Source of the DNA: Candidatus Poseidoniia archaeon
GTDB taxonomy: Archaea > Thermoplasmatota > Poseidoniia > MGIII > CG-Epi1
Direction: 5' to 3'
Assembly (NCBI GenBank): GCA_030748895.1
Contig: JASMLC010000003.1
Location: 3,621 to 67,620, forward strand
DNA length: 64,000 nucleotides
Within the stretch, counting starts at the first letter, position 1, and every line of letters starts with the position of its first letter. Both the position numbers and the translations under genes were made by a program. Below the pieces are notes generated by a model. It was not told the origin of the DNA, searched no databases, and was given only the letters and a program-made list of their open reading frames with translations. Below are positions 6,123-35,303 of this stretch, piece by piece.

Positions 6123-6692
6123 TCAGTCGACCTTGACTCGAGTGCCCTGCGGTTTTTCCGACTCCTGCTTCTTGAGCACGAGGTCGAGGATACCGTTGGT
6201 GTAAGTTGCCTTGGCCGAGTCGGGAATGACCTTGCAGCGCAGCGGCAGCCGCTTGTAGTAGTTGCGCGCGTCGGTCTCGACCTTGATTACGACTTCCTGC
6301 TCGCTGGCGTCGATGTCAATATCGGCTTTCGAGACGCCGGGAAGCTCGACCGTAATGGCGACCTCCTCCTCTGTCTCGTTGGTGTCGGTTAGCGGCTCGC
6401 GGCTGCCGGCTTCCACCGTCGCCTTCTGGCCAGCCGGGCCAAACAGCCCGTGGCTGGTGTTGCCGAACTCCTCGAACTGCGGACGGCCGTCGGGGCCGGA
6501 GCGCATGCTGAAGCCCCAGACGAAGGGAGACTTGCCGTCCGCCTCGGGCATATTGCCTTCGGCAGCGTCGCGCATCATTTCGTCCATCGTCTTGCGCATG
6601 CGCCTGAACTCGGCGTCCAGGCTGCCGAACAGGTCGTCCAGGTTCCAGTCCTGACTGAACCAGTCATCTTTCTCGTCTCGTTTCCAGTTCAT
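6123..6692 (-). CDS. hsp20: Archaeal small heat-shock protein Hsp20
   Basis: PFVWGFSMRSGPDGRPQFEEFGN, alpha-crystallin domain ending ATYTNGILDL; SD GAGGT upstream. Confidence 0.93.
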   Translation of the reverse strand: MNWKRDEKDDWFSQDWNLDDLFGSLDAEFRRMRKTMDEMMRDAAEGNMPEADGKSPFVWGFSMRSGPDGRPQFEEFGNTSHGLFGPAGQKATVEAGSREPLTDTNETEEEVAITVELPGVSKADIDIDASEQEVVIKVETDARNYYKRLPLRCKVIPDSAKATYTNGILDLVLKKQESEKPQGTRVKVD

Positions 6693-6710
6693 AATTACCT
6701 CGTATCAGTA

Positions 6711-6727
6711 TACAACTTTAAGTTGTA
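6711..6727. promoter_or_regulatory. Perfect 8-1-8 inverted repeat TACAACTT-T-AAGTTGTA, candidate heat-shock operator
   Basis: Lies between the hsp20 TATA-like element (~6748-6757) and the start codon; core is AAC-N5-GTT. Confidence 0.6.
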
Positions 6728-6776
6728 AACCTCATGTTGCTTACTGCTATATATAATTATTGGCCCGGGCGACAAA

Positions 6777-16767: not shown

Positions 16768-16853
16768 GGCGCGGCAGCGACGGCCGGTTATGCTATTTGC
16801 GCGACGCACGCTTCTTAAGCAGCGCGAAGCTGCGCTGCTTCGCGGTGAGAGCA

Positions 16854-18784
<1,931 letters not shown>

Positions 18785-18788
<4 letters not shown>

Positions 18789-20425
18789 CCCGCCGGCGCG
18801 ACCATTCCTGCCGGGTCGAGCAGTTCGCGCAGCTCCTGCTCGGACAGGTCGGTGAGCTCCAGCGCTTCTTCCAGCACGGTGCGCCCGGACGCGTGCGCCG
18901 CCTTGGCAATCTTGGCGGCCTGCTCGTAGCCGACCGCGGGGGCGAGCGCCGTGGCGAGCATCAGCCCCGACTGGAGCAGCTCGGGACCGCGGCCGGTCGC
19001 TTCCAGCCCGGCGATGCACTTCTCGCCGAAGATGGTCGCGGAAGCGGCGAGCAGCTGGATTGCCTGTAGCAGGTTGTGGGCGGCGAGCGGCAGCATCGTG
19101 TTCAGCTCGAGGTAGCCGCCCTGCGCCGCGTGCAGCAGCGCGGTGTCGCACGCAATCGCCTGCGCGGACGCCTGGATGACCGCTTCGGGAATCACGGGGT
19201 TGACCTTGCCCGGCATGATGGACGAGCCGGGCTGCACCGACGGCAGCCTGAGTTCGGCCAGCCCGCAGCGCGGCCCCGAGCCGAGCCAGCGGATGTCATT
19301 GGCGACCTTCTGCAAAGCCACCGCCAGGCAGCGCAGCGCGCCGCCCAGCGCCAGTACCCCGTCGAGCGACGACTGCGCCAGGAAGTGGTTGTCGGTTTCA
19401 TGGACATCTATTCCGACCAGTTGCGAGAGCTCTTCGCACGCCAGCCCGGCAAACTCGGGGTGGGTGTTGACGCCGGTGCCGACCGCTGTGCCGCCCAGCG
19501 CCAGCGGCGCCAGCTCATCCTGCGCCACCAGCAGTCGGTCGAGCGCCCGCTCGACGAGCCCCGCGTAGCCCTGGAATTCCTGCCCCAGCCGGATGGGGGT
19601 GGCGTCCATCAAGTGGGTGCGGCCGGTCTTGATGACGTCGTGGAACTCCTGCGCCTTGGCTTCGAGCGCCGCCTGCAGCGCCAGCAGCGCTGGCAGCAAC
19701 TGGCCGTGCAGCTCAAGGAGCGCAGCGACGTGCAGCGCGGTCGGGACGACATCGTTGGAACTCTGCCCCAGATTAACGTGATCGTTGGGGTGCACCTTGC
19801 TGCCGAGCGACTCGCTCGCCAGCCGCGCGATGACCTCGTTAGCGTTCATGTTGCTCGACGTCCCCGACCCGGTCTGGAAAACGTCGACCGGGAAATGCGC
19901 GTCGTGCTCCCCCTCAGCCACGGCCAGCGCCACCTGCTCGACCGCTTCCGCAATCCCGCTGTCGAGCAGCCCCAGCTGCCGGTTGGCGCGCGCGGCGGCG
20001 ACCTTGATGCAGCCCAGCGCGCGGATGAAGCTGCGGCCCATGCGCAGGCCACTGACCGGGAAGTTCAGCACCGCGCGTTGCGTCGAAGCCCCCCACAGGG
20101 CGTCGGCCGGTACCTCCATCTCGCCCATCGTGTCCTGCTCGACGCGCGTGTAGGGGTCGGCCGGCAGCGCCCCCGCGCCTGCGGCAACATCCGGCACGGC
20201 TCCGGTCGCCGGCTGCGCGCCGACTACGGCGCGCAGCCGCTCGCGGCGGTGGGCCGGACACTGGAACAGCCCGTATTCCGGAAACCGGACGTGCCCCTCG
20301 CCCAGGTCGGCGAGCAGCTGGCCCAGCGCAGCCGTGAGCGAAAGGCCGTCGTAGCACGACTCGGCATAGCCCTGCAACTGCTGGTGCACCTCTTTCGTGA
20401 CGCGTATCGACGTGTAGTCGGGCAT
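18785..20425 (-). CDS. fumC: Class II fumarate hydratase with N-terminal RHH-like extension
   Basis: [53 protein letters not shown]; ~90 extra N-terminal residues in frame. Confidence 0.92.
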
Positions 20426-20454
20426 GAGCCACACTGGGCAGCACCGTATAAAAA

Positions 20455-20490
20455 TGTATGCAATATGTATTATTATGCAATATGCATACA
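20455..20490. promoter_or_regulatory. AT-rich operator-like array upstream of fumC: inverted TGTATGCA...TGCATACA plus direct TATGCAATATG x2
   Basis: Inverted halves at 20455-20462 and 20483-20490; direct copies at 20457-20467 and 20474-20484. Confidence 0.6.
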
Positions 20491-20583
20491 GAAATAGGAC
20501 GAGTCAGACTAATTCCGGCTAATGTGATGGTTCTCGTCGAGCAAATTGAGCCGACGCGCGCCGCAGTGAGTGCTGGCAGCCCG

Positions 20584-28946: not shown

Positions 28947-28994
28947 GATGTTTCAGGGCCACAGCCCTTTATAATCGGAGCGAATGCAAAACAG

Positions 28995-34441: not shown

Positions 34442-34678
34442 ATGACTGATTTGCAGGCGGACCACCAGCTGGATTGCAGCGGCCTCAGCTGTCCGCTACC
34501 AATCCTGAAGACCAAGAAAACCATGGATGGCCTCGGGAGCGGGGAGGTGCTCCGGATGGTCTCGACCGACCCCGGTTCCCTTAGCGACGTCACCGCCTGG
34601 ACCAACCGCACCGGCAATCCACTGCTCGATACAGCGGAGGACGACGGCGATTACATTTTCTTCATCCGCAAGAAATAA
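34442..34678 (+). CDS. tusA: Sulfur carrier TusA
   Basis: LDCSGLSCPLP (CPxP) motif; start refined to ATG at 34442. Confidence 0.95.
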   Translation: MTDLQADHQLDCSGLSCPLPILKTKKTMDGLGSGEVLRMVSTDPGSLSDVTAWTNRTGNPLLDTAEDDGDYIFFIRKK

Positions 34679-34706
34679 CTAACTTAAATATACATCGAGT
34701 AGAAAA

Positions 34707-35222
34707 ATGAGTGGAAACGGAACCAAGCGCATGGCACTGATTGCCTCCAAGGGCACGCTGGACTGGGCCTACCCCCCCTTCATCCTCGCCTCGACCGCAG
34801 TGGCGATGGAGATGGAGGTGGCGGTCTTCTTCACCTTCTACGGACTGACGCTGCTCAAGAAAAAAATCAAGGCGGGCGTTTCGCCAGCGGGCAACCCTGC
34901 GATGCCGATGAAGATGCCTTTCGGCCCGGAAGGGTTCCAGAACCTCAGCTGGCCCATCCCCAACATCGTGAGCGGCAACGTCCCCGGCTTCGAGACGGTC
35001 GCCACTTCGCTGATGAAGAAGACCTTCAAGAACAAGGGCGTTGCAACCGTCGAGGAGCTGCGCGATATCTGCCTCGAGAGCGGCGTGAAGCTGATTGGCT
35101 GCCAGATGACGATGGACGTCTTCGGCTTCAAGAAGGAAGAATTCATCGATGGCGTCGATATCGGCGGCGCGGCGACCTTCCTCGAGTTCGCGGCGGACGC
35201 CGACATCCAGCTGTTCGTCTGA
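34707..35222 (+). CDS. dsrE: DsrE-family sulfurtransferase (DsrE2/DsrE3-type)
   Basis: KGTLDWAYPPFILASTA...FFTFYGL, IGCQMTMDVF, GAATFL. Confidence 0.9.
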   Translation: MSGNGTKRMALIASKGTLDWAYPPFILASTAVAMEMEVAVFFTFYGLTLLKKKIKAGVSPAGNPAMPMKMPFGPEGFQNLSWPIPNIVSGNVPGFETVATSLMKKTFKNKGVATVEELRDICLESGVKLIGCQMTMDVFGFKKEEFIDGVDIGGAATFLEFAADADIQLFV

Positions 35223-35281
35223 GCCTGACTACGGGCTGCACGGCATCGGAACTGGCAGTGTCCGGAATATGCAGATTATAT

Positions 35282-35303
35282 TATATACAGGTTTTTGTAT
35301 ATA
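35282..35303. promoter_or_regulatory. Perfect 8-6-8 inverted repeat TATATACA-GGTTTT-TGTATATA, candidate ArsR-family operator
   Basis: Sits in the AT-rich promoter region ~30 bp upstream of the ArsR gene. Confidence 0.6.

Follow-up and report, generated by a model that had tools for sequence, protein, structure and literature searches.

A putative ribbon-helix-helix domain fused to a fumarase-like lyase, and conserved palindromes at its promoter, in Marine Group III archaea

The gene described here lies in a 64,000-nucleotide stretch of DNA from a Candidatus Poseidoniia archaeon (the whole stretch is called the window). It encodes a 546-amino-acid protein whose reading frame occupies positions 18785..20425 of the minus strand and starts with an ATG at 20425; a GTG at 20434 is also in frame. 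The protein begins with a domain of about 70 residues (the N-domain), followed by a variable linker of about 17 residues, a conserved 12-residue junction and a lyase core spanning approximately residues 99–546. A TATA box and two palindromes precede the gene. The features, in window coordinates, are as follows.

18785..20425, minus strand: complete coding sequence of the fusion (546 amino acids plus stop), with N-domain, linker and class II fumarase/aspartase-family core
20294..20425, minus strand: putative ribbon-helix-helix (RHH) core, residues 1–44
20219..20293, minus strand: conserved C-terminal part of the N-domain, residues 45–69, ending in helix 3
20168..20218, minus strand: variable linker, residues 70–86
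20132..20167, minus strand: conserved junction, residues 87–98, leading into the lyase N-terminus
18788..20131, minus strand: class II fumarase/aspartase-family core, with Pfam Lyase_1 at residues 101–423 and FumaraseC_C at residues 490–542
19199-19228, minus strand: lyase signature loop G-S-x-x-M-x-x-K-x-N, residues 400–409, present in the window protein
20447..20454, minus strand: TATA box TTTTTATA, ending 22 nt ahead of the first base of the ATG at 20425
20457..20471, minus strand: promoter-proximal palindrome P2, AATACA-TAT-TGCATA (coding strand), ending 2 nt short of the TATA box and covering the expected BRE position
20474..20488, minus strand: distal palindrome P1, TATGCA-TAT-TGCATA, perfect

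The putative RHH core consists of a strand (residues 4–10, YTSIRVT), helix A (residues 11–24), a DGLS loop and helix B (residues 30–43). Its invariant residues include Y4, T5, I7, R8, V9, T10, K11, V13, L17 and Y20, as well as C24, Y25, L28, S29, L34 and L41. In residues 45–69, positions V46, F48, P49, G52, C56, P57 and R65 are invariant and H45 is nearly so; C24 and C56 are thus two invariant cysteines of the N-domain. The linker is rich in Ala, Gly and Pro in the window protein and in Lys and Ser in low-G+C relatives, and the ‘LP-x-DP’ portion of the junction is found in fused proteins only. A preliminary description of this DNA had laid out the N-terminus as a strand, two helices and a linker. 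These elements are retained here, but the direct step from helix B to the linker is not, as that layout omitted the intervening conserved segment of about 25 residues (GHVRFP-x-YG-x-F-x-CP and a third helix).

By sequence, the core belongs to the fumarate lyase superfamily (class II fumarase/aspartase). It matches Pfam Lyase_1 (residues 101–423) with 315.2 bits, above the gathering cut-off of 27, and like FumC and AspA it combines Lyase_1 and FumaraseC_C domains with the signature loop, whereas the N-terminal addition of about 98 residues sets it apart from both. Among solved structures, fumarases match it best (447 bits, against 371 for aspartase), and non-fused homologues of 465–489 amino acids share 65–70% identity. 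Because the core scores under both NCBIfam equivalog cut-offs, those for fumC (TIGR00979; 517.6 bits, cut-off 664.75) and for the aspartase subfamily aspA (NF008909; 506.8 bits, cut-off 510), the enzyme is called only ‘fumarase-like’.

The window by itself proves nothing about the extension, because at its G+C content of 67–68% a 95-codon extension would be open by chance about 1 time in 8, as estimated from base composition. GC3 nevertheless stays at 0.83–0.90 throughout the extension in the fusion frame, following the coding pattern. The in-frame extension is common to 84 protein clusters of 545–568 amino acids that are 64–94% identical to the window protein, and the fusion is present in 36 species-representative genomes ranging from 36 to 67% G+C, all of them Poseidoniia and mostly labelled Marine Group III. 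The lyase signature shares an open frame with the N-domain in 33 of the 36; the remaining three are cut by contig ends. In genomes at 36–40% G+C, where the probability of a chance open frame of this length is about 0.001, a stop codon lies 6–8 codons upstream of the Met of the fusion. Furthermore, the segment from promoter through N-domain to core junction (window:19900-20700) was recovered complete from 11 independent metagenome runs (seawater or marine), and metatranscriptome contigs of a relative cross the domain–core junction.

Values of dN/dS for the N-domain are 0.01–0.13 among closer pairs and 0.20 in the most distant pair, compared with 0.04–0.09 for the core and 0.07–0.8 for the linker where computable. 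Comparison across these genomes demonstrates that the extension is an in-frame fusion under purifying selection, kept throughout Marine Group III archaea, and the fusion is neither a chance frame nor an assembly artefact. The fusion pointed out in the preliminary description is therefore borne out by the 84 clusters, the 36 genomes and dN/dS values near those of the core. The search of related genomes that it proposed recovered the same architecture, and the lack of conservation that it had raised as an objection was not found.

The N-domain is probably an RHH fold, on moderate evidence from alignment and modelling. In hhalign comparisons, the N-domain profile aligns in register with CopG of plasmid pMV158 over 43 columns (26% identity, score 19.4, E = 0.0009), a score reached by 1 of 600 composition-matched shuffles and marginal, at about p = 0.04, once corrected for the 13 panel proteins. 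The alignment with Mnt covers 33 columns (z = 3.5) and requires the same 2-residue insertion. With the minimal repressors CopG, Mnt and Arc, the N-domain shares the helix-B cap G/D-L-S-x-[ST/N], and its predicted strand-helix-helix order lines up in register with CopG and Mnt, a likeness that lies under the level of detection by family HMMs. CopG positions 4, 6 and 8, its DNA-reading positions, align to Y4, S6 and R8. Unlike these repressors, which stand alone at 45–83 amino acids, the fused domain is attached to an enzyme, has its insertion where helix A ends and continues into a C-terminal extension.

Family searches yielded no such match. No RHH family appears among Pfam, NCBIfam or PHROG matches to the N-domain even at E <= 10, and a PDB profile search returned nothing. 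The former searches gave just scattered weak matches to unrelated families. An exhaustive HMMER search with the domain profile against 1.84 billion cluster representatives found no distant relatives; its 9 matches are all fragments of the fusion itself. The N-domain is thus without detectable sequence relatives outside the fusion, and for this reason we regard it as a candidate new RHH family.

AlphaFold2 (AF2) gave a monomer model of low confidence with no strands at the N-terminus, whereas a tandem model (first alignment row in tandem, homologue rows in single copy) placed strands at residues 4–10 and 102–108, each followed by two helices. Mean pLDDT is low (42–51) across monomer and tandem models. 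In Foldseek searches of the PDB, the top matches of the tandem model are TraY chains (E 0.7–1.3, non-significant); E values overall are about 0.2–1.3, also non-significant, and searches with the monomer model are meaningless. The top viral Foldseek matches, again non-significant, include a protein of an archaeal virus that bears the name ‘Ribbon-helix-helix domain’. The RHH pattern claimed in the preliminary description therefore gains from the in-register CopG and Mnt alignments and from the tandem topology, and loses from the missing profile matches and low model confidence. Likewise, the profile and AlphaFold check that it advised produced strand-helix-helix twice in tandem but no family profile match and a low pLDDT.

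The FP-x-[YF] motif of the N-domain resembles the end of the repeats of TraY, the F plasmid relaxosome protein. These repeats end in H-L-x-[RK]-[FY]-P-[DK]-F, and the N-domain reads G-H-V-R-F-P-x-Y, a local match of just 9–11 columns (P about 0.01–0.09); hhalign against the TraY family alignment recovers just the short FP-x-F motif. TraY differs in being a natural tandem, with two RHH repeats per chain, and in carrying no fused enzyme.

Upstream of the gene, 22 nt separate the TATA box from the ATG at 20425, and the mRNA is accordingly expected to be leaderless or nearly so; the same spacing recurs at other genes of the window, a leaderless pattern. Metatranscriptome contigs end inside the palindromes, with one continuing through from upstream, and because of these ends they do not locate the transcription start. 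The palindromes follow a 15-bp consensus, TATRCA-N3-TGYATA, with 6-bp arms and a 3-bp spacer. In the window their starts are 17 bp apart, a spacing that becomes 28 bp in one clade, equivalent to an extra helical turn. P1, P2 and their flanks (20455-20490, 36 bp) form one larger dyad, TGTATGCA...TGCATACA, and the corresponding operator sequence of the low-G+C clade is GTATGCAAAATGCATATTTATGCAAAATGCATAC.

Each of the 38 fused sequences reaching into the upstream region has the palindrome pair directly next to its TATA box, at a constant 31–32 nt from the ATG, and the pair is absent upstream of three non-fused close relatives. These comparisons of upstream DNA demonstrate that the palindromes are found only together with the N-domain. 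What the preliminary description called an upstream repeat is thus a strongly conserved palindrome pair that accompanies the N-domain. No further operator sites are present elsewhere in the 64-kb window, and the only others in 296 kb of related DNA are sites with 1 mismatch inside acs, at 4 loci. A metagenome scan with the single palindrome included chance matches among the matches listed and is uninformative about a regulon. An Rfam search of the upstream region matched no RNA family, and no transcription-factor gene was found in the conserved neighbourhood of the fusion gene. For the Bathy1 clade, a candidate link of S6T with G-to-A variants of the half-sites was discarded because R/Y variation at that operator position is also common in other clades.

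Because the N-domain is RHH-like and the gene's own promoter carries two matching palindromes, the enzyme probably controls its own gene. On balance, we favour the reading that the fusion gene encodes a bifunctional, candidate autoregulating ‘trigger enzyme’ resembling PutA and NikR, in which one polypeptide joins in frame a catalytic-type module and a presumptive DNA-binding N-domain. In this model, N-domains from two subunits would pair through their N-terminal strands (residues 4–10) to form an RHH dimer, and the outward-facing, invariant Y4, S6, R8 and T10 would, by alignment with CopG, read the TGCA-containing half-sites. Class II fumarases are tetramers, and in NikR a central tetrameric domain stands between two RHH dimers, each of which binds one half of a dyad operator. 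By analogy, the lyase tetramer could present two RHH dimers, such that one tetramer might occupy both arms of a palindrome, or both palindromes. Binding across the BRE and TATA box would then block TFB and TBP and give negative autoregulation in the manner of PutA. More speculatively, binding might respond to substrate (fumarate, malate or aspartate) or to oxidation and reduction of the invariant pair Cys24 and Cys56.

The expected arrangement of a fumarase tetramer with N-terminal RHH domains is therefore that of NikR, although the tetramerization domain of NikR is a small metal sensor and not an enzyme, and hhalign found no significant sequence similarity between the N-domain and NikR (sequence from PDB 1q5v). 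PutA is an autogenous repressor of its own regulon in which the RHH domain mediates dimerization (PMC5293562). The fusion protein resembles the trifunctional PutA of Escherichia coli and Salmonella in joining an N-terminal domain, here a putative RHH, to a metabolic enzyme, and its predicted target sites are in the control region of its own gene. PutA is nevertheless bacterial and the fusion protein archaeal, its flavin-dependent PRODH/P5CDH enzyme is unrelated to the lyase tetramer, and it switches by proline-driven membrane binding, whereas no switch is known for the fusion protein. The N-domain also adds its conserved segment of about 25 residues, and hhalign detected no sequence similarity to PutA (z = 0.3).

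A broader proposal, which we hold tentatively and regard as possible but doubtful, is that in this abundant uncultured marine archaeal lineage the tetramer of a central-metabolism lyase acts as the dedicated metabolite- or redox-responsive transcription factor of its own leaderless gene, a feedback circuit within a single polypeptide, through an orphan RHH-type domain without relatives elsewhere. We know of no such enzyme-regulator in Archaea and of no trigger enzyme in the fumarase family, and a literature search found neither a trigger enzyme for a fumarase nor a comparable RHH–enzyme fusion in archaea. Enzymes of this kind, among them PutA, BirA and PepA, are few in number (PMC6524683, PMC5293562); if the proposal is true, it would add the first one described for a fumarase. 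Both the protein and its presumed operator are defined and conserved, so that a test can use a 36-bp DNA and recombinant protein, and no culture is required.

Among other explanations, it is conceivable, albeit rather unlikely, that the N-domain is real and conserved but does not bind DNA, serving instead in oligomerization, allostery, partner binding or as a Cys redox or metal module, and that a separate factor, for example a helix-turn-helix dimer of the Lrp, TrmB or ArsR type, binds the palindromes. The palindromes would suit such a factor: 6-bp arms with a 3-bp spacer fit helix-turn-helix dimers, which classically bind 15-bp palindromes with a distance of 9 bp between arms. Yet the palindromes strictly co-occur with the N-domain, are missing from the three non-fused relatives and lie in a conserved neighbourhood that has no regulator gene. 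As for the domain itself, the lack of significant RHH family matches, the low-confidence structure models and the invariant C24 and C56 with the nearly invariant H45, which hint at a metal or redox site, are set against in-register alignment with both CopG and Mnt, invariant residues at the DNA-reading positions of CopG and a strand that appears solely when two copies are modelled.

It is improbable that two forms are made, a full-length protein acting mainly as regulator and a shorter, enzyme-only form initiated at an internal Met (DTMGEMEV). This Met is conserved, and NCBI pipelines chose it in many metagenome-assembled genomes (MAGs), giving records of 447 or 454 amino acids. Its conservation says nothing about initiation, however, because the residue belongs to a conserved motif at the N-terminus of the lyase itself and non-fused relatives have it too. 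Moreover, no clear Shine-Dalgarno sequence was seen upstream of it, and the extension contains no AT-rich promoter box, the sole TATA-like box being the one upstream of the ATG at 20425. Translation from a downstream start, including the GTG near the core that had been raised as a counter-argument to the fusion, is unlikely on this sequence evidence, and the TATA spacing fits the ATG at 20425. Several GenBank and UniProt entries for high-G+C members of this lineage likewise start about 90–100 residues late and omit the N-domain, a recurring annotation error that conceals it from domain-architecture surveys.

A role for class II fumarases in the DNA-damage response has been reported in other organisms, and an RHH-like module borne by a fumarase could tether the enzyme to DNA generally, for example for local production of fumarate or malate. 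We consider this very unlikely: palindromes of specific sequence and fixed position beside the gene's own TATA box point to promoter control, and nothing in the analysis bears on DNA damage. Finally, the extension can hardly be an untranslated or accidental open frame ahead of a true lyase of about 450 amino acids. Such a frame is not improbable in this high-G+C window alone, and two metagenome contigs carry a separate small ORF, but the frame is conserved in genomes at 36–40% G+C in which a stop closely precedes the Met, dN/dS is 0.01–0.13, GC3 tracks the coding pattern and the two odd contigs break precisely at the variable linker.

The latter contigs, L001 and L002, came from a word-indexed homologue search with the N-terminal 103 amino acids, which had first suggested a separate upstream gene for the N-domain in the form of two short stand-alone ORFs. 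This reading was rejected because the variable linker is where each contig breaks or shifts frame, and because a 545-amino-acid fused cluster, P0007, carries an N-terminus identical to that of the stand-alone ORFs.

A minus-strand open reading frame of 546 codons encodes an N-terminal extension in frame with a class II lyase, confirming the fusion gene that the preliminary description had claimed at this position.

Features of the fusion gene and its surroundings (window positions)
16797–18788, plus strand: acetyl-CoA synthetase gene (acs), convergent with the fusion gene
18785–20425, minus strand: fusion coding sequence, ATG start
20447–20454: TATA box TTTTTATA, last base 22 nt upstream of the ATG
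20455–20490: larger dyad, P1 and P2 together
20457–20471: proximal palindrome (P2), left arm degenerate
20474–20488: distal palindrome (P1), perfect

The window alone makes a weak case for a coding extension. At roughly 68% G+C, a stretch of 95 codons is expected to stay open by chance about once in eight, as estimated from base composition. GC3 through the extension is 0.83–0.90 in the fusion frame. Comparative sequence evidence decides the matter and confirms the extension as a genuine part of the protein. A whole-protein search returned 84 clusters of 545–568 aa (99–100% query coverage, 64–94% identity), every one with the extension. An N-domain alignment scan of one genome per species found 36 loci, every one in a Poseidoniia archaeon; most carry the label Marine Group III, and none bears the label of another lineage. 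In 33 of these the open frame continues to the lyase signature; contig ends truncate the remaining three. The G+C content of genomes carrying the fusion spans 36 to 67%, and at the AT-rich end the Met is preceded by a stop codon at a distance of 6–8 codons, so that frame and start are well defined. Pairwise dN/dS is 0.01–0.13 for the N-domain (0.20 in the single most distant pair), close to the 0.04–0.09 of the enzyme core, and 0.07–0.8 for the linker where computable. The cluster and locus counts, together with the low dN/dS, show that the extension is conserved and under purifying selection. Moreover, the segment 19900–20700, spanning promoter, N-domain and core junction, was found complete in 11 independent marine metagenome runs, and metatranscriptome contigs from a CG-Epi1 relative cross the domain–core junction.

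Two metagenome contigs present the N-domain as a separate small open reading frame, a reading that we reject because the break or frameshift falls precisely in the variable linker in both, and because the same N-terminus occurs fused in a 545-aa cluster (P0007). In one (L001:1270–1767) unrelated AT-rich sequence begins in the linker, and in the other (L002:1910–2210) about 50 nt are missing there; chimeric or collapsed assembly is the probable cause.

The lyase, of the class II fumarase/aspartase family, occupies residues ~99–546, with Pfam Lyase_1 on residues 101–423 (315 bits), the signature loop at 400–409 and FumaraseC_C on 490–542. The top-ranking NCBIfam model is fumC_II at 517.6 bits, under its equivalog cut-off of 664.75, and the aspartase subfamily model follows just behind (506.8 bits against a cut-off of 510). 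Among solved structures, fumarases lead (3rd8, 447 bits) and aspartases score lower (1j3u, 371 bits). We therefore call the core fumarase-like: the claimed fumarase stands as to class II family and best structural match but falls below the fumC equivalog cut-off, and these scores do not fix the substrate as that of a fumarase or an aspartase. A non-fused relative (P0099, 489 aa; L039:1355–4470) is encoded directly after two class I (Fe-S) fumarase genes, an arrangement that puts in question whether lyases of this clade act as fumarases or as aspartases.

Among clades with only ~45–50% identity in the first 65 residues, 23 of these positions are invariant, including Y4, T5, I7, R8, V9, T10, K11, C24 and C56.

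Anatomy of the N-terminal extension (fusion-protein residues)
4–10: strand YTSIRVT, alternating polar and hydrophobic
11–24: helix A
Between helices A and B: loop, D/G-L-S
30–43: helix B
After helix B: conserved segment GHVRFP-x-YG-x-F-x-CP
58–69: third helix, after the GHVRFP segment
About 17 residues: linker, variable in composition and sequence
Leading into the lyase: conserved junction LP-x-DPYTR-x-E-x-D

The N-domain is an orphan at the sequence level. Profile searches of Pfam, NCBIfam, PHROG and PDB gave no ribbon-helix-helix (RHH) family match, and an exhaustive HMMER search of 1.84 billion representatives recovered only fragments of the same fusion. We compared its profile with a panel of 13 RHH sequences, of which 11 were each confirmed full length as a PDB entry, and two TraY repeats were confirmed separately. 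The alignment with CopG takes in 43 columns and stays in register from the strand through helix B (score 19.4, pairwise E = 0.0009); one of 600 composition-matched shuffles reached this score, a marginal p of ~0.04 after correction for 13 tests. This alignment places Y4, S6 and R8 at CopG positions 4, 6 and 8, which contact DNA in the CopG–DNA structure. The Mnt alignment is shorter, at 33 columns (z = 3.5), and, like the CopG one, carries a two-residue insertion where helix A ends.

An AF2 monomer model, suggested in the preliminary description, contains helices only, but a tandem two-copy construct forms strands at 4–10 and 102–108, each followed by two helices, at low confidence (mean pLDDT 42–51 across the N-domain models). 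Foldseek with the tandem model ranked F-plasmid relaxosome chains first, from entries verified to contain TraY, a natural tandem-RHH protein (E 0.7–1.3). The top viral matches include one from a Sulfolobales virus that bears the name 'Ribbon-helix-helix domain'. TraY repeat ends, H-L-x-R-[FY]-P-D-F, resemble GHVRFP-x-Y of the N-domain, a local match only. RHH, as first claimed, is thus the best-supported predicted fold, and a quite probable one given the CopG and Mnt register and the tandem strands, although family profiles do not match and model confidence is low. Because family profiles do not establish membership of the RHH superfamily, we place the domain in no named RHH family.

Translation most likely starts at the ATG at 20425, since the sole AT-rich box near the gene lies 22 nt upstream and the extension contains no AT-rich or TATA-like box, which favours the proposed N-terminus over a downstream start. 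Several other window genes have a TATA-like box 19–27 nt upstream of the start codon, a spacing typical of leaderless archaeal mRNAs. An in-frame GTG at 20434 would precede the inferred transcription start. In assembled metatranscriptomes the contigs stop within the palindromes and so do not confirm the start from RNA.

Several public records of high-G+C relatives (P0008, P0188–P0190, P0094–P0096; for example OIR10918.1 and UniRef100_A0A1J5T5U4) begin at an internal Met, giving proteins of 447 or 454 aa that lack the ~95-aa N-terminal domain, a recurring start-codon error; some JGI and NCBI entries of the same clade are full length. A Met further upstream in frame lengthens the open reading frame by seven codons in a few clusters (554-aa forms). 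In the low-G+C loci (L009–L038), (G)ACGATAAT occupies the 9–12 nt just before the ATG, nearly invariant between species and outside the coding sequence in most; it may serve as an initiator, as a promoter-proximal element or as an additional binding site.

Upstream alignment of all loci reveals a near-invariant element of two 15-bp palindromes, TATRCA-N3-TGYATA, spaced 17 bp start to start. The proximal one ends 1–2 nt before the TATA box and, in every locus, 31–32 nt before the ATG. Even in 67% G+C genomes the element retains its AT-rich sequence, and the intergenic DNA around it shows no conservation. Palindromes of the CG-Bathy1 clade (L026:3912–3954, L029:3912–3954) are spaced 28 bp apart; the additional 11 bp equal one helical turn, so relative helical phase is kept. 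Both arms of the distal palindrome in this clade are changed symmetrically (TATACA...TGTATA).

With up to one mismatch allowed, no further copy of the motif exists in the 64-kb window; 296 kb of related DNA adds only one-mismatch copies, which lie within acs coding sequence at four loci. These copies, TATACA-N3-TGAATA (L009:6783, L018:6795, L023:6678, L032:5114; all low-G+C), probably reflect conservation of the coding sequence and not a second operator. The element is absent upstream of three close non-fused homologues (65–70% identity), and the upstream region matches no Rfam family. N-domain fusion and a dyad at the gene's own TATA box thus co-occur strictly. The upstream repeat of the preliminary description is borne out as this conserved pair, an element new relative to that account.

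Class II fumarases are tetramers, and NikR is a tetramer with two RHH dimers. If the N-domains pair into RHH dimers, the fusion tetramer would, like NikR, present two of them on flexible linkers, with each TGCA-containing arm read by one dimer; one tetramer could then occupy each palindrome and two the whole putative operator, or a single tetramer might span both palindromes. P2 lies over the BRE position and directly beside the TATA box, so a protein bound there would hinder TFB/TBP binding and repress transcription. The palindromes also stand upstream of the TATA box, and occupancy may activate the gene rather than repress it. Under repression, the fusion protein would negatively regulate its own gene, as PutA does (PMC5293562), perhaps, more speculatively, under control of substrate or the invariant Cys pair. 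NikR and PutA are functionally the closest analogues, NikR through the tetrameric arrangement that we infer here and trifunctional PutA as an RHH–enzyme fusion and autogenous repressor (PMC5293562), the RHH here being predicted. Such proteins belong to the general category of 'trigger enzymes' (PMC6524683), an interpretation partly supported here and strengthened by the operator evidence. The literature that we searched describes neither an RHH–fumarase fusion nor, for Marine Group III archaea, this feature.

Other neighbours of the fusion gene encode an inositol-monophosphatase-family protein, a PurQ-like amidotransferase and nucleoside diphosphate kinase, with no transcription-factor gene among them in the window. 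The acs and fusion stop codons overlap (TTAG, 18785–18788), leaving no intergenic terminator region. An aldo-keto reductase gene separates the monophosphatase and fusion genes in relatives (L001, L002, L018) and is missing from L008 and the window (20426–20583), where ~95 nt lie between the end of the monophosphatase gene and the operator, and ~158 nt between that end and the ATG. The 67% G+C window holds other short AT-rich islands (~6692–6770, minus strand; 28968–28982; 34651–34707; 35206–35290) that may serve other genes as promoters or operators; one holds the palindrome ACAACTTAAAGTTGT, and another is a TATA-like box apparently common to a divergent gene pair.
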